Shown: positions 3,805 to 56,225 of the stretch, in pieces | Layout of the letters: each line of letters opens with the position of its first letter | How positions within the stretch are numbered: the stretch's first letter is position 1 | Source: Dictyostelium discoideum | Taxonomy: Eukaryota | Direction: 5' to 3' | NCBI GenBank assembly: GCA_000004695.1 | Contig: CM000150.2 | Location: forward strand, 352,001-416,000 | DNA length: 64,000 bases | Program-made: the position numbers and the translations under genes | The notes under the pieces: model-generated | Seen by the model: the letters and a program-made list of their open reading frames with translations, nothing else | What the model was told of the DNA's origin: nothing | Databases searched by the model: none

Positions 3805-5213
3805 GATTTCTTTTCTTCCTCTTCTTTCTTTTTTTTATCTTTTTTCTCTTGTTCTTCTTTTTTCTTTTTATCTTTTTTCTCTTGTTCTTCTTTACCTTTT
3901 TTCTCTTTTTTCTCTTTCTTTTCTGAATCTTCTTTCTCCTTTTTAATACGTTCACGTTCTCTACGTTCACGTTCTTCTTGATCACGTTTCTCTTTTAACT
4001 CTGCAGACTTTGAAGCTGATCCTAAAATTTTATCATCAAAAAATGGTGTTGCAACTGGTGGTGATAAACCATGTTGTAAACGATTAACTAACATTGTATT
4101 TAAATCTTGTGATAACCTTTTATTTACAACTGAATTATCTATACTATTACGTTTTAATGGTGATATCGATACAATTGGTGGTGGTGTTGTTGATTGTTGT
4201 TGGTTGTTGTTTGATGGTATATATGGAACAAAATTATTATTATTTATATTTATATTTGGTGGTGGTGGTAGTATTATATTATTATTATTATTGTTTATAT
4301 TATTTATATTATTTGAATTATTTTGATTTTGTTGAGGTTTTATAAATTGACCCATTTGTTTTGGATCTAATGATGCTGATCTTGTTGGTACTGGTGGTGG
4401 TGGTGGTTTAAAATATCCTACTGAATTTTGTGATTGTAAACTTGGTGAGCCATTTGATGATGCACTATTAACAAATGATCCACTGTTGTTATTATTATTA
4501 TTGTTATTATTAAAAAAAGATGGAGGTGGCGGTATGCCTCCGCTAGTACTTAAGTTTAAACTATTTATATTATTATTACTATTGTTATTACTATTATTAT
4601 TATTATTAGCACTTCCATCACTATTTCGTAATATTCTTGGAGGTAATGGAACACCACCACTTAGATTTAATGAAGATGATGATGGTGAAGTTGTTGTTGA
4701 TGAAGATGGTGACAATGTTGGTGGTGGTGGTAAATTGGTTGGTGGTGGTGGTGGTAAATGTACAATTGGTGGAGGTGGTGGTGCCGTATTTCCATTTAAA
4801 GGTGGTGATGATACAATTCGTTTTGGTAAAATTGGTGATGATGATGGTGAAAGTTTCTTTATAAATGCTGGTGGTGGTGGCATTGTTGTCGTTGTTGTTG
4901 TTGTTGTTGTTGGTGGTCCACCATTATTATTAGTTGGTGTTGGTGGTACTTTTCTTGCTACATTTGGTGATGATGATGGTGATTGTCTAATTGACGATGA
5001 TGGTGATGACGATGATGATGATGGATTAATATTATTCGATGGTGATTGTGGTGATAGTGATGTTCCTACCTCTCTTGGTGAGGTATTTGATGCTAATTGT
5101 TGTTGTGTTGGTTGAGGTGGTGGTCTAACTGGTTTTAATTGTACACTGTGTAATGATGGTAATTGAAATCCTTGTGGTGATGATTGAACTGGTGGTGGAG
5201 GTAATTTACTCAT
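3159..5213 (-). CDS. RhoGAP-domain protein with a long proline-rich (FH1-like polyPro) N-terminal region and a Lys/Glu-rich charged linker
   Basis: Single 684-aa ORF. C-terminal domain [21 protein letters not shown]...[15 protein letters not shown]...[12 protein letters not shown] matches the RhoGAP catalytic core including the arginine finger (GIFRITGS). The N-terminus holds PPPP runs and a poly-Thr tract. Confidence 0.8.
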
Positions 5214-23347: not shown

Positions 23348-23349
<2 letters not shown>

Positions 23350-24736
23350 GAAATCAATTAATTTTCTAAATAAAACCAAAGGTATTTTTAATTATTATAA
23401 TAATTTTCAAAGAAATCATTGTAGTATTGTTTTAAATGGAAATAAAGAAAATAAAATTTCATCATTGTATAGTTGGGGTTGTAATAAAGACGGTAAACTA
23501 GGTAATAATAATGAATTGGTTGATTGTGAAGCATTTCCTAATAGAATCTCAAGTTTTCAAATTAATAATAATCAAATAATTGATAATCAATCATTTAGTA
23601 ATATTGGTATAAAAGATATAGAATGTGGTCATTATCATACAATGATAATTGATAAAAATGATAACTTATATCAATGTGGTTGGACCTCATTTGTAGGTAT
23701 TAATAATTTAACAAAAAATAATAAAAATCTAATACCAACTATTATAAATCCATCATCATCATCATCATCATTTAAAATTAAAAATGTTAGTGGTGGTAGA
23801 AGACATACATTAATATTAACAAAAGATGGTAAAGTTTATTCATATGGAATTGGATCAGAATATCAATTAGGTCATGGTGATAATCAGAATAGATCAGAAC
23901 CAACTGAAATTGAACAACTTTCAAAATATGCTATAATTAAAGTTGTAAGTGGATGGGGACACTCAATAGCATTATCAAATGATGGTAAATTATATTCATG
24001 GGGATTTTCAAACGATTCTCAAACTGGTCATGGATTCTTAATTGATAATCCAATCAAATCACCAAAATTAATCGCCAGTGATTTCAATTTCAAAAATGTT
24101 TTCTCTGGTAGTGATTTCGTAATCACAATCACTGATAAAGGTGAACTAATTACATTTGGTTCAAATGAATTTGGTCAATTAGGTAATGGTACAATCATTA
24201 ATCAAGAATTTCCAATCAATATAATTAATAATCATTTTGGTGGTGGTGGTGGTGGTGGTGGTGCTAATTCAAAATTTAATAAAATTATTGAATCAGCAGG
24301 TAAAGGTAAATTTGATAAAAGGATATCATGTGGATTTTCACATTGTTTAATTTTAAATGATGATGGTGAATTATTTACATTTGGTTGGAATGGTAATGGT
24401 CAATTAGGTATTGGACGATCCAATAGTAATAATAATAATACATATGAATCAATACCGATAAAATTAGATTCAAGTTTATTTAATGGTGAAAAGATTGAAA
24501 TGGTATCTGCTGGTAGAAATCATTCAGTTGCTTTGACTGAATCTGGTAGATTATATCTTTGGGGTAACTCAAATCATGGTAAACTTGGCAATGGTACTGT
24601 ATCTGGTAATATCTATGAACCAACGGAATTATTTGATTTCGATGAATCTGTACCACAATCATTTCCACTAGAATTTCAAAAAGTTTTAAATATTTCAACT
24701 GGTTTTGATCATACAATTATAGAATTATTAGAATAA
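23348..24736 (+). CDS. RCC1-repeat (RCC1-like domain) protein
   Basis: Single 462-aa ORF with at least 6 RCC1 blades: GRRHTLILTKDGKVYSYGIGSEYQLGHGDN, GWGHSIALSNDGKLYSWGFSNDSQTGHG, SDFVITITDKGELITFGSNEFGQLGNG, FSHCLILNDDGELFTFGWNGNGQLG, NHSVALTESGRLYLWGNSNHGKLGNG. Confidence 0.8.
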
Positions 24737-24991: not shown

Positions 24992-27294
<2,303 letters not shown>

Positions 27295-29028: not shown

Positions 29029-30632
29029 TTATAACATTTTTTGAATCCTCTTATTATTATTTTTTAATCTATCATTTGCATGATCAACTTTATCAGTTAT
29101 TCTATCAAGTTGTGAAGAACTACGTTCAGCTTCATCACCAATTGTTTTTGCTATATTACTAATATCACCTAATAGATCAGAGATTTCATCTAAATCTTTA
29201 TCTTGTTCGATTAGAGCATCTTTAATATCATCAGAGGCATCTTTTATGAAATGACTTGTACCTAAGGTTGAAGCTCTAGTGAAGAGGGAGCTTTGTTGAG
29301 ATCTACCAGAGGAGGGAATGAAACGAATGGTTGGGTTGCCATAGATAAACTCTTTGATACCAGGTTCAAAGATAACTTGTGGGGCTTTGCCATACTTTCC
29401 ATTTGAACGTAAAACGATCTCATTGACAACGTTTTGAATGTAACTGCTTGCCATTCTAAAACGTGGGTATTTATTATTAAAGAATCTGACATCCATATGC
29501 TGAGGACGTGCACGAATCACCAAATACTCGACACTGTCGAAAGTGTAGGTCGAGATGATCTCGGTTCTGGGCTTCCTATTGGCATCCAATATGATGAATC
29601 TGTCGTTGTGAATTTGCACGAAACCTGGTATCAAACTATCGTTTGCCAATTTCTCCAATATGTCGATCTCAATGGGAGGTTCGTCCCTTGGTCTGACCTG
29701 CAACGATCTATCCAAGGGGGCAAACTCCTTTCTTGGTCCGTTGGTTGTATCTTTACTGAAATGGTTGGACAAGGCTCCCCCCACACTCTCAATTCCTTTC
29801 AACAATCGATCGGATCTGTCGAGATTGGCATGAATGTTGTCCATCTTTGCCTCTATCCCATCGATCACCTCTGCCTGATAGGACAACTCGTTCAAAGTTG
29901 CTATACCCGTCTCCTTTGTCTCTGTGGCCAATTTCAATGCCAACTTTGTCGATTGTGTATCCACTCTAGATGAAAGTTGTTTTTGTTTCTGTTGTCCAGC
30001 ACCTCGAAATAAATTCTTTTCATCTAAATCTTTATCAACTGAATTTGGATTATATATAAATGGTGGACATTTCCAAAGATGATAAATCAATGTAAATGCT
30101 TCATCCCTATGTGAAAATGTACCAAATGATACTAACTGTTCTGCTGTTTTAAATGTTATTGCATTATTTACAAATAATGTTGTATCTTTTTTCATCTCTA
30201 AAATTTTTCTTAATGGTATTGTTTCCTAAATTTGTATAATTTTATATAAAAATCAATTAATAAATTAATTAACTAATAAATCAATTCATTATTAATTATT
30301 ATATTTACAGTTGTACTACCAATTGAAGCTATAAATGATAAAAAGTTTTCTGTAATATACATTTTTCCTAATGTTACTTTATTTAAAGCACATGAGTAAT
30401 CTTGAATAACATTTTCTGTTTCTGGATAATTAAATGTTCTTCTAACAAGTTCTGTTTTAACTTTTAAATGATTTGCTTTATCTGCTGGTGATGTCTATAT
30501 ATTTATTTAATTTTATTTTTTATTTTTTATTGTTAGTTTTATTATTATGAATAATAAAAAAAAAAAATTTTAAAAAAAAAAAAAAAGATAATTATAAATA
30601 AAAAAAAATTTTAATATTCCAAACCATACCAT
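29029..30632 (-). CDS. GRAM-domain SNAP-25-family Qbc t-SNARE (~461 aa). Exon 1 is the bare ATG at 30630..30632 with a GTATGG donor; exon 2 is 30309..30494; exon 3 is 29029..30225.
   Basis: Exons 2 and 3 encode a GRAM domain across the intron (LVRRTFNYPETENVIQDYSCALNKVTLGKMYITENFLSFIASIGSTT|ETIPLRKILEMKKDTTLFVNNAITFKTAEQLVSFGTFSHRDEAFTLIYHLWK). A Qb SNARE motif TQSTKLALKLATETKETGIATLNELSYQAEVIDGIEAKMDNIHANLDRSDRLLKGIES aligns with the SNAP-25 N-terminal helix. A PH/GRAM-like middle domain follows. The C-terminal Qc motif DKDLDEISDLLGDISNIAKTIGDEAERSSSQLDRITDKVDHANDRLKNNNKRIQKML ends in KML as in SNAP-25. The start-codon exon is inferred and least certain. Confidence 0.6.
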
Positions 30633-30679
30633 TTTTTTGTTAAAATGTTGTGTGTGTTAAATTTAAAATAAAAAATAAA

Positions 30680-30718
<39 letters not shown>

Positions 30719-31062
30719 AAAAGTGTTGGAATTTTTTTTTTTTTTTTTTTTTTTGTTTTGTTTTTTTTTTTTTTGTTTTAAAATATAATTATAAAATAAA
30801 ATCGAAAATAAAATAAAATAAAATAAAATAAAATAAATTATTTATTTATAATTTAAAAAAAAAAAATATTGGGACAAACTATTTTTTTTTTTTTTTTTTT
30901 TTTTTTTTTCCATTGTTTACAAAGCTTGAAAAAATAAAAAAATAAAAAATAAAAATAAAATAAAAAATATTTTTTTCAAAAAGTTGAAAGATATTTCAAT
31001 GACATCATTTTAGAAAGCCAAGAAATTAAGGAAATAATAAAAAAGTAGTACAGTAATTATTC

Positions 31063-31099
<37 letters not shown>

Positions 31100-31249
31100 T
31101 TTTAAAACACCACTTAATTTTTTTTTATATTTTTTTACCATTTTAAATAAAAAGTTATAAATCAAACCGAAATAAAAAAAAAAATTTGAAAATAAAATAA
31201 AAAAAATTTAAAAATAAAAAAAAAAAATCGCACACACTGTTGATCCTAT

Positions 31250-31615: not shown

Positions 31616-33211
31616 ATGGAACCAAATATTAAAAATGGTGATGATGGTAAATTAAATATTGCAATTATTGGTGGTGGTATTTCAGGTATGTCATGTGCAT
31701 ATCTTTTAACTATGGGTGGACATAATTGTACAGTTTTTGAAAAAGGAAATTATTTAGGAGGTCATACAAACACTGTTCAAGTTAAATTTCAAGAAGAGAC
31801 AGTAAAGATTGATACAGGATTTCTAGTGTATACACCACAAAAGTATCCAAATTTAATGACCCTCTTTAAGAGATTAGGTATTAAAAATGGTGAATCCGAT
31901 ATGTCATTTGGCTATTCATTGAATGCTAGACAAGGTATTGAAAAAACTGTAGAGATGGAAGTTGTTGCCAATGAAATCACCACAAATCCAATTAAAGCTC
32001 CAATTAGAAGAGAGATTGAATGGTGTTCAGATAATTTATCAACGATTTTCGCACAATGGCAAAACTTATTCAGACCATCATTTTGGAGATTATTAATTGA
32101 TCTTTACAGATTCTCAAAAGATGGTCCATTGATTGTAACACCAGAGAATTTAGAAAAGTATAAAAATATGTCAGTTCGTCAATATTGTGAAATCAATGGT
32201 TACTCTAGAGCATTCATAGAATACTATTTAATTCCAGTTGCATCAGCAGTTTGGTCAACAAGTTTCAAAGAAGTTGACCTTTTCCCAATTGTTACATTGG
32301 CACGTTTCTTTCAAAATCATGGTCTTTTTAAAATTGTAAATCGTCCACAATGGAATTCTGTCCAAGGTGGTAGTTATCAATATATGGAAAAAATTAAAGA
32401 ATTTTTAGAATCAAATGGTGGTAAAATTTTATTATCATCACCAGTTTCAAAAGTTGTTAGATCAAAGAATACTCAAGATGGTGTTTTCATTACAACAACA
32501 ACTACAACTACCAATGGTACTACTACTGATACTGCTACTACAAATACTCAACATTTTGATAGAGTTGTATTTGCTTGTCATACACCAGACATTTTCCCAA
32601 TGTTAACTGATATGACATATCCAGAGAGAAAAGTATTGAGTGGATTTAAATTCACTCATTGTCTTGCATATCTTCATAGTGATCCATTGTTAATGCCACG
32701 TCGTAGAAGTACATGGTCAAGTTGGAATTATATTTATGATGATAGTTCATTGACAGAGAATAAATTATGTTGTACCTATTGGTTAAATCGTATTCAACCA
32801 TGGGTGAATGCAGAAAAGTATCCACTTTATTTAACTTTAAATCCAGTATTTCAACCAAACCCATCACTATTACATCGTGTCATTGAATATGATCATCCTT
32901 TGATTTGTCCCGAGAGTGATAAAGCCAAATCTCGTTTACCAACAATTCAAGGTATTAGAAATTCATTTTATTGTGGTGCTTGGACTGGTTATGGTTTCCA
33001 TGAAGATGGTATCACCTCTGGTTTATTGGCTGCTCAATTAATTGATCCAAGTTTAAATAAACTTTGGAAAGTTGATGTCACTCGTTATATCGATGAATTC
33101 CCTTCAAATCCTGATAAAACAACTTTAACAATCTTTAAAAATATTTTATATTTTTCAACTTTATTAACTTTAATTTATTATTCAAAACCAATTTTAAATA
33201 AATTTAAATAA
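31616..33211 (+). CDS. FAD/NAD(P)-binding amine-oxidase-like oxidoreductase (bacterial COG2907-type predicted NAD/FAD-binding protein), ~531 aa
   Basis: The true start is MEPNIKNGDDGKLNIAIIGGGISGMSCAY (Rossmann GxGxxG) inside the listed ORF, then ...GGHTNTV...IDTGFLVYTPQKYPNLMTLFKRLGI... and a C-terminal ...CGAWTGYGFHEDGITSGLLAAQLI typical of amine-oxidase-fold flavoproteins. Single exon. Confidence 0.7.
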   Translation: MEPNIKNGDDGKLNIAIIGGGISGMSCAYLLTMGGHNCTVFEKGNYLGGHTNTVQVKFQEETVKIDTGFLVYTPQKYPNLMTLFKRLGIKNGESDMSFGYSLNARQGIEKTVEMEVVANEITTNPIKAPIRREIEWCSDNLSTIFAQWQNLFRPSFWRLLIDLYRFSKDGPLIVTPENLEKYKNMSVRQYCEINGYSRAFIEYYLIPVASAVWSTSFKEVDLFPIVTLARFFQNHGLFKIVNRPQWNSVQGGSYQYMEKIKEFLESNGGKILLSSPVSKVVRSKNTQDGVFITTTTTTTNGTTTDTATTNTQHFDRVVFACHTPDIFPMLTDMTYPERKVLSGFKFTHCLAYLHSDPLLMPRRRSTWSSWNYIYDDSSLTENKLCCTYWLNRIQPWVNAEKYPLYLTLNPVFQPNPSLLHRVIEYDHPLICPESDKAKSRLPTIQGIRNSFYCGAWTGYGFHEDGITSGLLAAQLIDPSLNKLWKVDVTRYIDEFPSNPDKTTLTIFKNILYFSTLLTLIYYSKPILNKFK

Positions 33212-33365: not shown

Positions 33366-33502
33366 TTTTTTTTTTTTTTTTTTTCTAATTTTTTTTTTTT
33401 AATTTTTTTTTATATTTTTTTTTATTTTAGCGAATCATTATAAAAAGTTCTCAACATTTGAATAAATTAAATTTATCAAATTTAAATCTAAATATATATA
33501 TA

Positions 33503-33941
33503 ATGTCACAACAAAAACAGCAACTTACAGAGAATCAAATTATTGAACATTATAAAGATTTAAAATCACAACAACAACAAATTATAAGTAGAATTTCAGA
33601 GTTTGAATCAGATGTAGGTGAATATGGTTTAGTTATAAATGCAATTCAAAATTTAGAATCAAATAGAAAATGTTTCAGAATGGTTGGTGGTGTTTTGGTA
33701 GAAAGAACTGTTGGTGAAGTTTTACCACAAATTAAACAAAATAGAGATGGTGTAACTATTTTTTTTTTTTTAATTTTCAAAATATTATTATTATTTAATT
33801 TAATAATACTAATTTTTTTCAAAATAAATAAATTTATAGATTAAAGAAGTTGTAAAGAAATTAGATGAAAATCTTTCAATTAAAACAAAAGAATTAAATG
33901 ATTTTGTAGCTTTATATAAAATAAAAATAACTTCACAATAA
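33503..33941 (+). CDS. pfdn2: Prefoldin subunit 2. Exons 33503..33751 and 33840..33941.
   Basis: MSQQKQQLTENQIIEHYKDLKSQQQQIISRISEFESDVGEYGLVINAIQNLESNRKCFRMVGGVLVERTVGEVLPQIKQNRDG|IKEVVKKLDENLSIKTKELNDFVALYKIKITSQ. RKCFRM(V/I)GGVLVERTV is the conserved PFD2 beta-hairpin. The intron donor is GTAACT and both junctions are phase 0. Confidence 0.75.
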
Positions 33942-34295: not shown

Positions 34296-35553
34296 TTAAA
34301 TATCAAGATTGATTAAACCTAAAGATTTTAATAAACCCTTATTTTTACAATGATTTTGATGAAAACAACAAATACAACCCAATTCATCAGATAAATGAAC
34401 ACCTTTATCACAATTTTCTTCACAACTTGTACATTTATTCAATTCTGAAGATTTACTAATGATAATACCTAAATGATCGAAAATTTCTTCACAACTACCA
34501 GTACCACCTTCAACAGAGTCAACTAAAAACATTGAATTTGAGGAAGAATCATTATTATTATTATTACTATTACTATTAAAAGATAATGATTCTAATTTGG
34601 TTATAAAATTTAATGATTCTTCAATATCATTCTTTGGTGAAATTACTAATGGAATAGTCGAAAGTATTTGATGAATCATTGTATGTAATGAAACTCTTGT
34701 ATCACCCATCTCTAAAAGATCAAAAATCTTTGAATCATATTCTTTTCTATCAATTGTTAATGATCTTTGAAGTTTATTTCTTAATTCTTCGATTTTTTTA
34801 TTAAAAATTGGTTTAAAAATATCTCTTTTAAAATTATAATTTTAAAATAAATAAATAAATAAATTAATATAAACATATATATTTTTTGTTTTTTTTTTAA
34901 CAAATTAATTTTATATACTTTACCTAGTGGAATTTGTAAATGAAAATTCAATACATGGTGCTTCAAAATTAATTTGTAATGGTTGTTTTAATTGAATATT
35001 TTCAATTTCAGGTTTTGATTGACGATTTTGATCATCATAATTATTTGAATTACTAAAAGTTTTCTTTTCATATGAACCAACAGAAGTTGTATAGATACCA
35101 ACACCAAATGAAACTAATAATTTTACTTGAGAATTTGATTTAAAATTGAAAAAAGATTGTTTTAAAATTTGTTTCATTTCAACTGTATTTATTTTATTTG
35201 CAGTTGTAACAATACGAACACTCTTTGGAAAATGAATTGGTTTTACAATTGCAAAACTATTTGAATATTCATTATTATTATTATTATAATTTTTATTATT
35301 GTTTGTAGTATTTAATGAAAGTTCTAAAACTTCAAAATGTGAAATTGGGCCACTATTATTTCTAAAACTTTCAGTATTATGAGTCATAAATATTGAACCA
35401 GGGAATAAACGTGTTATACTTTGAGATTTTGAAACTTTTTCAATGATATCACCATTAATTGAATTTAATTTAACATTTACAATATCATTTGTACCTGAAC
35501 CACCTCTTAATGATATTGATAAATGATGATAATCATTAGATTTCCATAAACCA

Positions 35554-35594
<41 letters not shown>

Positions 35595-37333
35595 TATTGA
35601 TTGTAAATAAATTTTATTATTATTTAATAAATTTTGTAAAATTAATTGAGAATTTGGACCAAAAAGTTTTAAAAGATAATTATAATTTGATTGTATACCA
35701 ATTTCAGAAGTTGCACAAAGTAAATGTGATGATAAAATATTTGGAAAATCACCATTGAATGAAAGTTTTTCAGCTTCACCTTCATAGAGTGACATTGGAT
35801 TATTTGAAAAGAATTTGTCTAATGGACTATAGTAATCTGGTATGTATAGTACTAAACCAAGTTTTGATCTACCTACTCTACCAACACGTTGTTTCCAACT
35901 CATTTTACTACCAGGATAACCAATGATTAGACATGCATCCAACTCTGAGATATCGACACCTGCCTCCAATGCATTGGTTGATAGGATTACATTTACATTA
36001 CCACGTTTCAATTGTTCCAATGTTTCCTTTTTATGAGCGGCTGATAACGATGCGTAATAGGGTCTTACCAATTTAGCTTTCTGTGAGAATTTACCATCAT
36101 TTGAAAAACTTTCATATAGAGTATTCAATGATTTAATTGTATTAAAGAATACAATACCCTTTATACCATACTGAATCCAATTGTTTATAATTATCGATGG
36201 TAAATAAAATGAATTTTTAGTTGGTCTAAGTGTTAGAAATACTTTTCCAAATGATCCCGAACCATTTCTATCGATTAAATGTAATCTTTGAGGTGACTCA
36301 TTTTGTCTACTAATGGTTTTTAATCCAATTTCAATTGGATTACCAACTGTAGCTGATGCCATTAAAAATTGTAATCTATTACTATTTAAAAAATTGATTT
36401 TTGAATTTAAATTAAAATGATAGTTTTGAATACGTCTAATTAAATTTATAAAATGACAACCCAATGCGCCAGAATATGTATGAATTTCATCTAAAACTAT
36501 GAAACGAAGATCGCTGAACCATTTTCTCCAACTATCATCCGAACCACTTTTTAAACCACCTCTATAGAGTTGATAATGTAACCAATCGGGACTTGTTAGG
36601 ATGATGTCGGGTTTGGTTGACTTATTTGAAAATAGTCTTGATAATGAATCTTTTTGAGTATCACGACTAAAACTATTAATATTTAAACGTAAATCAATGG
36701 GTAACATTTGATTCAACCTATTGATTGAGTTTAATTGATCATTTGCCAATGCATTCAATGGTACTAAAAACATTGCACTTGGAGTTTTAATTAAGGGTTG
36801 TTTTAAAACGTTTTGAGAGATTTGTAAATTCTTTAATTTTGCTTTTAATATCTCTTCAAATATCGGTAGAAATAAACAAAGTGTTTTACCACTTGATGTT
36901 GGTGTTGTAATAATAACATCATCACCTTGTATTACCTTTGAACGACATTCCAATTGATGACTATAAAGTTTATTATAACCCATTGATCTTAATACTCCAC
37001 TCAATATTGATGGTATCTCTTTTGGAATTTCCAATAAATTTGGTTCTTGATGTTCCGTACAATATAAATGAGTAATTGTACCTTTTAATGAAATTGCTAT
37101 CTTTTTAAATGGTTCATGTTTAATATTTTCTTCAATTTCTTCTTCTTTAATTAATATTTCATTATTATTATTATTATTGCTATTGTTATTATTAAATAAT
37201 TTATTATTTAATAATGATTCATTAATTTGTTGTTGTTGTTGTTGTTGTTGACTCGAATTTGATTTATATGATTGTATGAAACTATCAAATGATTTATTTA
37301 TATCTTCATTCTTACTTTTTATACTATTTATTG

Positions 37334-37421
<88 letters not shown>

Positions 37422-37785
37422 TACACTATTTACACTATTTACAATTGAGTTACTATTTGAATTACTATTTCTATTATCCAAATTATTTATATCATTAAAA
37501 TCATTATCATCAAATTCAAACTCGAAATCATCTTCAATTGTTACCGATGTTGTATCAATGTTTGATTGTTTATTATCATTATTGCTATTATTATTATTAT
37601 TATTATTGACATTAATTTTATTGTTGTTACAATTACTATTTTTATTTTCTTCATCATCGTCAAAGGGATCAAATGGTTTTGTTGAAGTTGGTTGGTTTTG
37701 AATTAAAGGTGTTGTTCTTTTTTGAAATGATATATGGTTTGATGCTTTATTGAAGTTATTATTATTATTATTATTATTAATATTG

Positions 37786-37822
<37 letters not shown>

Positions 37823-38186
37823 TATTATTATTGTGATTACTTATATTATTGATATTAACATTATTATTAGGTATTAAACTGTTGAAGGATAGAGCAGGTA
37901 AATCAAATGGTGATAAATCAGAATCTGAAATAGGTTGGTTACTACTATTGTTTTGTTGTGATGGAAAATTTAGGGAATATTTTGCTTTATTTTCGTTATT
38001 ATTATTATTATTATTTATATTATTACTATTATTAGTTGAGAAAGAACCAAATTGTCTTTTTGAATTATTTCTAACATTTGAATCTAAACCATTTAATAAT
38101 TCTTGTTGAGAAAATAATCTTTTCTTTGGGTTTATAAAATCATTTTTATAACTATCACTATCACTAATTTTATTATTTATATTCAT
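34296..38186 (-). CDS. Hrq1/MrfA(YprA)-type DExH helicase with a C-terminal 4-Cys (MZB/DUF1998-like) domain, ~1260 aa. Exon 1 is 34924..38186; a 99-nt intron runs GTAAAG...AG; exon 2 is 34296..34824.
   Basis: Helicase motifs: I ITTPTSSGKTLCLFLP, Ia VPLNALANDQ, II VLDEIHTYSG, III MASATVGNP, V ILSTNALEAGVDI, VI QRVGRVGRS. The long Asn-rich N-terminus includes (TTA)33. The listed stop after ...FTNSTR is a donor (actag|gtaaag). The phase-2 junction continues in frame into an exon encoding ...CTSCEENCDKGVHLSDELGCICCFHQNHCKNKG, which is the 4-Cys Zn module. Confidence 0.7.
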
Positions 38187-54647: not shown

Positions 54648-56225
54648 TTATTTTTTATTTAAAGGGAGAATAACTTTTTGATTATTCATAAATGGTTGTA
54701 AAACTTTTGGAATTAAAACTGAACCATCAGATTGTTGATTATTTTCTAAAATGGCTAAAATTAAACGTGGTATAGCACAAGCTGTACCATTTAAAGTATG
54801 AGTGAATAATGGTGGTATTGAATTATCAATTTCATTATTATTATTACTATTATTATTATTATCATCATTTAAAATTTGTGGTGATGGAATAATTTTATAA
54901 TTATTTTCAACAAATTGTTGAATTTGGAAATCATCTTTTGTTGATTGATATTTTATATTTAATCTTTTACTTTGATAATCGGTGCAATTTGAAGCACTGC
55001 TGATTTCACCATATTCTTGTTTTGAAGGTATCCAAACTTCTATATCATATTTTCTGTATGCTGGTGCACCTAAATCTTCAGATGGCATATCTAGCACTCT
55101 GAAATGTAGACCTAATTCACTGAATAATTCAATTTGAATTTTTAAAAGTTCCTCAAGAATCTCATTAGATTCGTGTGGTTTTGAAATGATAAACATCTCA
55201 ACCTTACTAAACTGGTGTACCCTATAGATGCCCTTATTTTGCAAGCCTCTGCCAGCCTCGGGTCTGAAACAGTGTGAATAGCCCACCATTTTAATAGGCA
55301 ACTCTGCAGATTGCAATGGCTCCTCATTGGCGTACATACCCGCTAATGGGATTTCAGAAGTTGCCGATAGGCAAAGATCCCTATCCTTAATCCAAAACAA
55401 TTGGTCAGCATCTGAACGTGCATGAAACCCACAAGCTTCTGCCAAATTTGGGTGAATCAAATCTGGTGTTATCACAGACTGAAATCCGTATTTATAAGTT
55501 AGTTTAGAAAATGCCCAATAGGACAACGCCATTTCCAGCATGGCACCCTCCCTTGTGAAATAGTAGTATTTATGACCGGTGGTCTTTGAAGCCGATCGAA
55601 TCACTCCTAAACTCTCACCCAACTCTAAATGATCTTTAATTGGTTCATCTGGTTTTAAATAATTTGGTTTCTCACCAACCATTTTAATAATGTTTGCATT
55701 GGATTCTGCTCCTATTGGCACTGATGGGTGTGTATTATTTGGTATTTTCAAAGCTTCACTTGTGATCTCATTGAAGTATATATCATGTTTCTCTTCCAAT
55801 GCTATTAAATCCTCTTTCACTTGTTTACCTTGTTCAACTAATTCCAATCTATCATTTTTATTACTTTCACCACCACCTTTCATCATTAATTTCATCTTTG
55901 ATGCAATTTCATTTCTTTTTGCTCTAAATGTATCCAATTCTTTCTTTATAATTCTATATTCATCATAATTTTTAATTAATTTCTCTAATTCAACTGGTGA
56001 TTTTCTTTTTATAATATTTTCTTTAATTTGATTTTCATTATCTTTTATAAATTGAAAATCAATTCTTGGTTTAATTTGATTAACAATAATATGTTGTTGC
56101 TGTTGTTGTTGATTAATTTCATTTTGGTCAATTTGCTTAATTTTACTTGTATAATATTTTAATAAATTTGAATTTAAATTTAATTTATTATTACATTGAT
56201 TAAAATTTTTAAATAATTTTAACAT
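54648..56225 (-). CDS. Seryl-tRNA synthetase (class II), organellar/mitochondrial-type with N-terminal extension
   Basis: 525-aa ORF. N-terminal coiled-coil arm. Class II motifs ...YYYFTREGAMLEMALSYWAF..., motif 2 HCFRPEAGRGLQNKGIYRVHQFSKVEMF, motif 3 ...GTACAIPRLILAILENNQ. Confidence 0.8.
   Translation of the reverse strand: MLKLFKNFNQCNNKLNLNSNLLKYYTSKIKQIDQNEINQQQQQQHIIVNQIKPRIDFQFIKDNENQIKENIIKRKSPVELEKLIKNYDEYRIIKKELDTFRAKRNEIASKMKLMMKGGGESNKNDRLELVEQGKQVKEDLIALEEKHDIYFNEITSEALKIPNNTHPSVPIGAESNANIIKMVGEKPNYLKPDEPIKDHLELGESLGVIRSASKTTGHKYYYFTREGAMLEMALSYWAFSKLTYKYGFQSVITPDLIHPNLAEACGFHARSDADQLFWIKDRDLCLSATSEIPLAGMYANEEPLQSAELPIKMVGYSHCFRPEAGRGLQNKGIYRVHQFSKVEMFIISKPHESNEILEELLKIQIELFSELGLHFRVLDMPSEDLGAPAYRKYDIEVWIPSKQEYGEISSASNCTDYQSKRLNIKYQSTKDDFQIQQFVENNYKIIPSPQILNDDNNNNSNNNNEIDNSIPPLFTHTLNGTACAIPRLILAILENNQQSDGSVLIPKVLQPFMNNQKVILPLNKK

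Follow-up and report, generated by a model that had tools for sequence, protein, structure and literature searches.

A probable SNAP-47-type Qbc SNARE of Dictyostelium discoideum with an N-terminal GRAM domain and a PH-like domain between its SNARE helices

The window, that is, the whole stretch of 64,000 nucleotides of Dictyostelium discoideum DNA analysed here, is extremely AT-rich, with a G+C content of 22%. Its minus strand contains a SNAP-47-type gene with an in-frame CDS of 1386 nt (461 codons and the stop). The spliced 461-aa product is the same as the D. discoideum AX4 protein XP_647149.1 / UniProt Q55GN5 (100% identity over 100% of the length), which is labelled 'GRAM domain-containing protein' at NCBI and 'Synaptosomal-associated protein 47' at UniRef. 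Public databases already contain the gene, the gene model, and the family assignment. The features of the locus are the following.

30632-30630, minus strand: exon 1, consisting of the ATG start codon alone, with the donor GTATGG next to it
30495..30629, minus strand: intron 1, 135 nt, GT..AG, 7% G+C
30309..30494, minus strand: exon 2, aa 2-63, encoding an N-terminal helix and the first half of the GRAM domain
30226..30308, minus strand: intron 2, 83 nt, GT..AG, 8% G+C, interrupting the GRAM domain
29029..30225, minus strand: exon 3, aa 64-461 and the stop codon TAA (29029-29031)
30070..30446, minus strand: GRAM / PH-like N-terminal domain, aa 18-115, with intron 2 inside
29770..29970, minus strand: Qb SNARE helix, aa 149-215, with the zero-layer Gln180 encoded by CAG at 29875-29877
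29359..29685, minus strand: internal PH-like domain between the Qb and Qc helices, aa 244-352
29032..29238, minus strand: Qc SNARE helix, aa 393-461, ending in ...RIQKML, with the zero-layer Ser432 encoded by AGT at 29119-29121

The first-pass annotation of this DNA had proposed splice junctions at 30225/30309, a first exon reading ATG|GTATGG, and a product of 461 aa, all of which, together with its coordinates, agree with the annotated XP_647149.1 model. Both introns are of the GT..AG type and AT-rich (7-8% G+C), matching what is expected of Dictyostelium. An in-frame TAG abuts exon 2 on its 5' side and therefore the start codon must be spliced on from upstream. Within the 600 nt upstream (30495-31100) two mutually overlapping ATG-GT sites are present, at 30632 and 30627, the former being the one that yields the annotated product. 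The orthologues all start with M-[AST]-SP, and at the junction of intron 2 (IGSTTE|TIPLRK) the protein is uninterrupted relative to them.

The possibility that the gene model is an artefact, with a GRAM exon taken from a separate upstream gene and a real SNARE protein limited to the 388-aa ORF starting at MKKDTT, can be set aside almost completely. A version consisting of this ORF only does exist among database proteins (P0024), from assemblies with prokaryote-style gene calling, but the ORF starts midway through the GRAM fold, at aa 74, and would give a truncated domain, while exon 2 connects to it in frame via the canonical, AT-rich 83-nt intron. The nearest gene upstream, encoding a flavin amine oxidase, begins at 31616 on the opposite strand, and the GRAM exon is therefore not part of a separate upstream gene on the same strand. 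Orthologues also have a contiguous GRAM-SNARE protein, including transcript-derived ones of the Physarum type (Trinity), of Mastigella, and of Paramoeba (MMETSP).

The AF2 model of the full-length protein (mean pLDDT 68) is low in confidence only in three linkers. Its four modules are two beta-sandwiches, each with a helix (aa 1-118 and aa 248-349), which alternate with two long helices (aa 154-218 and aa 395-460). The order GRAM - Qb - internal PH-like - Qc, as originally proposed, was right for every module tested. Cysteines occur only at positions 36 and 116 and none lies in the linker of about 180 aa between the helices (216-392), which is thus devoid of a palmitoylatable cysteine cluster. 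No transmembrane or hydrophobic segment was seen in the 461-aa protein, with a 19-residue hydropathy maximum of 1.0.

The N-terminal domain is a GRAM domain by sequence and by fold. Pfam GRAM PF02893 matches aa 18-115 with an E value of 1.8e-15 and 57.2 bits, against a gathering cutoff of 23.6. The AF2 model displays a PH-like fold of seven strands plus a helix at 103-115. In a Foldseek search of the PDB the best match was the PH-like (GRAM) domain of Lam6 (5yqr; E 1.5e-07, 27% identity over 107 columns), a structure also matched by phmmer against PDB sequences, followed by the tandem-PH proteins FARP DH-PH-PH, the Pob3/Spt16 middle domains, and BBS5. The likeness, in both fold and sequence, concerns the N-terminal domain and extends to Lam6/Ltc1 and GRAMD1-type proteins, which are sterol transporters anchored in the membrane, carry StART-like domains, and lack SNARE motifs. 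The GRAM domain had initially been ascribed to two short upstream exons. The domain is real, but exon 1 provides only the ATG; aa 2-63 come from exon 2, and exon 3 supplies the remainder of the domain, aa 64-118.

A second PH/GRAM-like module had been predicted between the helices, and its PH fold was borne out. The internal domain adopts the PH-like superfold, a beta-sandwich of seven strands with a C-terminal helix as its cap, like solved PH, PTB, and FERM-F3 domains. The residues best conserved in the whole family lie in this domain: K255 and H306 are invariant, and conservation is 90% or higher for R301, R303, D308, R318, R320, R336, F349, and E350. At the level of sequence we reject an origin of this domain by internal duplication of the GRAM domain, for which hhalign gave a probability under 1%.

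The two SNARE helices resemble those of SNAP-25. The first-pass annotation had aligned them with the N- and C-terminal SNAP-25 motifs, including a C-terminal KML, and in this it agreed with phmmer against PDB sequences and with the register of the layers. By phmmer both SNAP-25 helices were matched, full-length SNAP-25 with an E value of 1.2e-12, its C-terminal helix with 1e-05 to 2e-06 (isolated chain 1sfc_D, 1.9e-06), and chains of the N-terminal helix with about 5e-04; the C-terminal ...RIQKML was aligned with ...ATKML of SNAP-25. The heptad layers of the first helix (Qb) read TAATGTLQIIMILSLI, compared with TMVSGTLQLIMIMALL in SNAP-25, and those of the second helix (Qc) read LILIAIASLIVALNIM, compared with LVILAMIQIIANIAAM. 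A Pfam check, also proposed at first pass, succeeded for the GRAM domain and for V-SNARE_C (aa 161-209; 36.5 bits, cutoff 27.1), but the SNARE profile PF05739 remained under its cutoff at the Qc helix (aa 435-460; 21.6 bits, cutoff 26.8), where phmmer does match SNAP-25.

The "zero-layer Gln context" noted earlier applies to the first helix only. Gln180 is the Qb zero layer, a position at which all 53 homologues have Gln, but the Qc zero layer is Ser432, which is aligned with Q390 of human SNAP47, and the nearby Gln sits three residues downstream. Gln at both zero layers, as in the human protein (Q143, Q390), is thus not found in the Dictyostelium protein. Among the 53 homologues the Qc position is occupied by Gln in 32, by Ser in 15, and by other residues in six, which indicates that Ser432 is a lineage variation and not a reason for exclusion from SNAP-47. 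The close relatives Acytostelium, Cavenderia, and the Physarum type retain the Gln. Serine at this place makes the ionic layer 2Q:1S:1R, a lineage-variable feature by which assembly or disassembly may be tuned.

The serine can also be read as the mark of a non-fusogenic regulator which, like tomosyn or amisyn, would fill the Qbc positions and hold syntaxin and VAMP in an inactive or slow state, the ionic layer being weakened by the loss of the canonical Gln; the variable residue at the Qc zero layer across homologues suggests relaxed constraint. We consider this very unlikely. All remaining layers are hydrophobic and SNAP-25-like, the Gln is kept in the close relatives just named, and some fusion-competent SNAREs also have a residue other than Gln at the Qc zero layer. 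Mammalian SNAP47 has been linked to delayed modes of exocytic fusion (PMC7941186), but it supports the fusion of liposomes and that of autophagosomes with lysosomes (PMC10968809; bioRxiv 10.64898/2026.08.08.743640).

Several known SNAREs share part of this organization. Like SNAP-25 and SNAP-23, the best sequence matches for both of its helices, the Dictyostelium protein has two SNARE helices per chain with the same layer pattern, a Gly in the first helix at layer -3, and KML at its C-terminus. SNAP-25 and SNAP-23 have a short, palmitoylated linker (CxCxCxC) and no globular domains, whereas the Dictyostelium protein has neither a short nor a palmitoylated linker and carries two PH-like domains; it does not belong to SNAP-25/23 in the strict sense. 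Like SNAP-29, which acts in autophagosome-lysosome fusion, it is a soluble, non-palmitoylated Qbc SNARE, but both of its helices match SNAP-29 weakly (7bv6, 4wy4), less well than SNAP-25. SNAP-29 is not known to have PH or GRAM domains. The same logic, an anchorless SNARE recruited by a lipid-binding module, operates in the yeast proteins Vam7, a Qc SNARE with a PX domain, and Spo20, with a lipid-binding N-terminus. The lipid-binding folds are different there (PX and an amphipathic helix, respectively), Vam7 has only one SNARE helix, and neither protein is known to be homologous to the Dictyostelium one outside the SNARE motifs.

The fusion of these modules is widespread in Amoebozoa. An exhaustive profile search retrieved 139 representatives with E values below 1e-30, and with HMMs for the individual modules the order GRAM-Qb-PH-Qc was found in 62 of 172 proteins. 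The named carriers of all four modules are all Amoebozoa: dictyostelids, Physarum, Balamuthia, Stygamoeba, Mastigella, Pelomyxa, and Paramoeba. Entamoeba displays the first three modules, with Qc under threshold. Several of the relatives' proteins were assembled from transcripts, and the fusion is therefore real at the mRNA level in these organisms. A word-indexed search of proteins that started from the 53-sequence alignment gave only Amoebozoa among the matches listed. A homologue from an 'archaeon' MAG (P0155), a candidate prokaryotic SNAP47, lies on a 5-kb contig with a weak DDE_1 transposase match and was judged a likely eukaryotic contamination.

The arrangement had not been recognised at first pass as that of a described family, a view that does not hold: it is the arrangement of SNAP-47, the name UniRef gives to this same protein, and both the published hallmarks and an end-to-end profile alignment agree with it. 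The SNAP-47 family was described in 2006 (Holt et al., as cited in PMC7941186 and PMC12864822). SNAP-47, a Qbc SNARE, combines a long N-terminal extension or PH domain with a Qb-Qc linker and lacks palmitoylated cysteines (PMC7941186, PMC12864822, PMC11718230), and Q390 of the human protein is its ionic-layer residue (PMC11718230). The Dictyostelium protein likewise has Qb followed by Qc in a single chain, an N-terminal PH/GRAM-like extension, and a long, structured linker, with neither a palmitoylatable cysteine cluster nor a transmembrane segment. It is of similar length (461 aa, SNAP47 419-464 aa), at about 20-24% identity to mammalian SNAP-47.

For a comparison at the profile level, 53 amoebozoan-type proteins were set against 12 vertebrate SNAP47 proteins, all of them database sequences. 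With a vertebrate set of very low diversity (Neff 1.8), hhalign gave a single colinear end-to-end alignment of 399 columns (probability 99.3%, E 1.3e-20), within which the internal domain is colinear as well. Taken by module, the N-terminal domain aligned with a probability of 97.7% (E 2e-12), Qb with an E value of 3.5e-10, and Qc with 4.5e-09. BLASTP against Bos taurus SNAP47 found GRAM and Qb colinear (E 2e-09) and Qc with 7e-06. A search with the human SNAP47 sequence, 100% identical to database protein P0175, gave 543 matches; among the best 120 of these, all source-named ones are SNAP47. The amoebozoan GRAM HMM matches 119 of the 120 vertebrate SNAP47 sequences listed, and some vertebrate SNAP47 proteins themselves exceed the Pfam GRAM cutoff (24.6 against 23.6 bits). 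The N-terminal domain of Dictyostelium is a much clearer Pfam GRAM (57 bits) than that of SNAP47 (about 24 bits), its helices are more SNAP-25-like than those of the mammalian protein, and the Qc zero layer has Ser in place of human Gln390.

An alternative is independent accretion, in which an amoebozoan plasma-membrane Qbc SNARE of the SNAP-25/Sec9 type gained the GRAM and the linker PH domains by itself and is analogous, not orthologous, to animal SNAP-47. With the amoebozoan helix HMMs, SNAP-25 scores 49 and 54 bits and vertebrate SNAP47 only 33 and 33, in line with the best PDB matches being SNAP-25, and with the GRAM HMM, unrelated multi-GRAM proteins reach 59-79 bits, above the 39 bits of the vertebrate SNAP47 N-domain, so that this domain is nearer to generic GRAM domains. 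The internal domain taken alone does not match the vertebrate linker significantly, either by hhalign (probability 1.6%, P 0.03) or by HMM searches in both directions (best E 0.03-0.05 in a set of 179), and one SNARE phylogeny placed SNAP-47 as metazoan-specific (PMC6143360). Against accretion, the module order is identical, spacing and length are similar, and the profiles align colinearly from end to end. The weak matches of the internal domain are all in the correct register and have in common an RF...[FY]R[LM]xS motif, the cysteine cluster of the linker is missing in both groups (PMC12864822), and vertebrate SNAP47 is plausibly just fast-evolving. Independent accretion is considered unlikely.

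The preferred reading, which we hold with good confidence, is that the locus is the SNAP-47-type gene of D. discoideum (Q55GN5), encoding a soluble Qbc t-SNARE. Orthology with animal SNAP47 is proposed because of the shared, otherwise unusual architecture more than on sequence distance, and the UniRef name supports the assignment. In contrast to the metazoan-specific view (PMC6143360), the SNAP-47 architecture is widespread in Amoebozoa.

As a gene, this is an ordinary, annotated one with the architecture of a known family, in which the internal PH-like domain has been little discussed. The SNAP47 papers found describe a single N-terminal PH domain, and no description of a second one in SNAP-47 was found in the literature searched. 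Pfam PF28207, precomputed on vertebrate SNAP47 at residues 126-167 or 224-329, as judged by the isoforms carrying it, is a newer family that may already cover the internal PH-like domain. Neither the presence of a conserved PH-like domain as the "linker" nor the amoebozoan spread of the architecture was evident in the literature found.

By analogy with the SNAP-25 family and mammalian SNAP47, the Qb and Qc helices would assemble with a Qa syntaxin and a VAMP7-type R-SNARE into a four-helix bundle driving membrane fusion. Because a covalent anchor is absent, recruitment through the PH-like domains is proposed, which would bring the soluble protein from the cytosol to its target membrane. The N-terminal PH-like domain of mammalian SNAP47 binds PI4P and PI(4,5)P2, and when it is deleted the protein neither binds liposomes nor is recruited to the plasma membrane (bioRxiv 10.64898/2026.08.08.743640). 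The beta1-beta2 loop has fewer basic residues in Dictyostelium, where the KRR loop of vertebrate SNAP47 is not conserved, suggesting that phosphoinositide binding may not be conserved. The Arg/His-rich, conserved internal PH-like domain probably adds a further surface for lipids or proteins, by which both helices are positioned; from its basic cluster one may speculate that an anionic ligand is bound there too.

Mammalian SNAP47 is recruited to autophagosomes by its PH-like domain together with LIR motifs that bind ATG8, and there forms part of the STX17-SNAP47-VAMP7/8 complex (PMC11718230, PMC10968809). By analogy, the most likely role in Dictyostelium would be in endolysosomal or autophagosome-lysosome fusion and/or in regulated exocytosis. 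No experimental work on the Dictyostelium SNAP-47-type protein was found in the literature searched.

A broader proposal, to which we give slightly less than an even chance, is that SNAP-47 is an ancient "double-PH" Qbc SNARE older than the split between Amoebozoa and Opisthokonta, with the inter-helix PH-like domain and its invariant basic cluster (K255, R301, R303, H306, R318, R320) as the most constrained ligand-binding module, in a segment that is commonly depicted as an unstructured linker. If this is true, descriptions of SNAP47 as a single-PH protein omit half of its targeting machinery. The inter-helix region is a well-folded and highly conserved PH-like domain rather than a passive linker. 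If the proposal holds, Dictyostelium would be a simple genetic system in which to dissect it, with a natural Gln-to-Ser variant of the zero layer. Mammalian SNAP47 is at present being investigated for its part in autophagosome-lysosome fusion and AMPA-receptor exocytosis, and an amoeba orthologue that is tractable and has a clearer GRAM domain could be of use in defining the ligands of both PH-like modules.

The middle of the Dictyostelium discoideum SNARE gene has an unusual base composition. Positions 29251-30050, which correspond to about residues 150-390 of the minus-strand coding sequence, have the highest G+C content in the whole 64-kb window, with a 300-nt maximum of 0.47 against a window mean of 0.22 (sd 0.08). 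The only other stretches of the window in which the 300-nt G+C content reaches 0.40 or more are 4651-5000 (0.41) and 55051-55650 (0.45). Third codon positions follow the same course, GC3 being 0.5-0.7 at residues 150-300 and 0.00-0.13 towards either end of the exon that encodes them. A comparable G+C-rich block occurs in the orthologue of Polysphondylium violaceum, where GC3 rises to 0.73, whereas the D. purpureum orthologue is devoid of such a block and its GC3 is at most 0.23. As guesses at the origin of the block, one can put forward gene conversion with a bias, or recombination concentrated locally in a hotspot. An antisense open reading frame of 179 aa (29434-29973, plus strand) lies wholly within the D. 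discoideum block, where stop codons are sparse, which probably accounts for its presence.

The D. purpureum gene occupies positions 10-1623 of the stretch taken from GL870989.1. It is labelled “partial” because this contig begins 9 nt before exon 2, thus leaving the 3-nt exon 1 off the contig. The gene also differs from that of D. discoideum in having an additional intron near the C-terminus, after residue 444.

The following genes surround the SNARE gene in D. discoideum:

23348-24736, plus strand, RCC1-repeat protein
24992-26233, minus strand, phosphatidylinositol-4-phosphate 5-kinase (Pfam PIP5K, E 3.8e-100)
31616-33211, plus strand, amine oxidase, divergent from the SNARE gene and with a promoter region in common with it
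33458-33844, plus strand, prefoldin
34296-34709, minus strand, open reading frame with an MrfA Zn-binding domain (MZB)
34920-38186, minus strand, DEAD-box helicase

The MZB reading frame and the DEAD-box helicase perhaps form a single spliced gene. The PIP5K gene lies about 3 kb downstream of the SNARE gene, the mammalian counterpart of which is recruited by PI4P/PI(4,5)P2; this proximity is probably a coincidence.

Some homologues carry misleading database names. The Pelomyxa schiedti protein KAH3759813.1 (P0044), named “delta-aminolevulinate dehydratase”, and a JGI protein (P0068), named “uncharacterized coiled-coil protein SlyX”, both have the full architecture. P0155, a protein of 528 aa entitled “MAG: hypothetical protein [archaeon]” (GCA_030685055.1, contig JAUXWV010000403.1; 2520-4106 of stretch L001), matches the GRAM, Qb and middle domains. 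Its 5-kb contig, in which a second gene has a weak DDE_1 transposase match, most likely comes from a eukaryote and was placed in the archaeal MAG by binning. In Physarum polycephalum, transcript 01565 (P0014) encodes Qb-PH-Qc preceded by a NECAP PHear domain (PF07933) in place of GRAM, whereas a second transcript (P0017) encodes GRAM and Qb. The assembly could be chimeric, the gene could use alternative 5' exons, or there could be a paralogue in which one PH-like head has replaced another.

Among precomputed Pfam matches, PF28207.1 is listed for every one of the vertebrate SNAP47 proteins (P0174-P0293) but not for the Dictyostelium protein. It persists in SNAP47 isoforms from which the N-domain, the Qc helix or the segment 168-223 is missing, and its position in the primate SNAP47 of 419 aa must therefore be either 126-167 or 224-329. 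PF28207.1 would thus represent either the Qb helix or the linker domain of SNAP47, more likely the linker domain.
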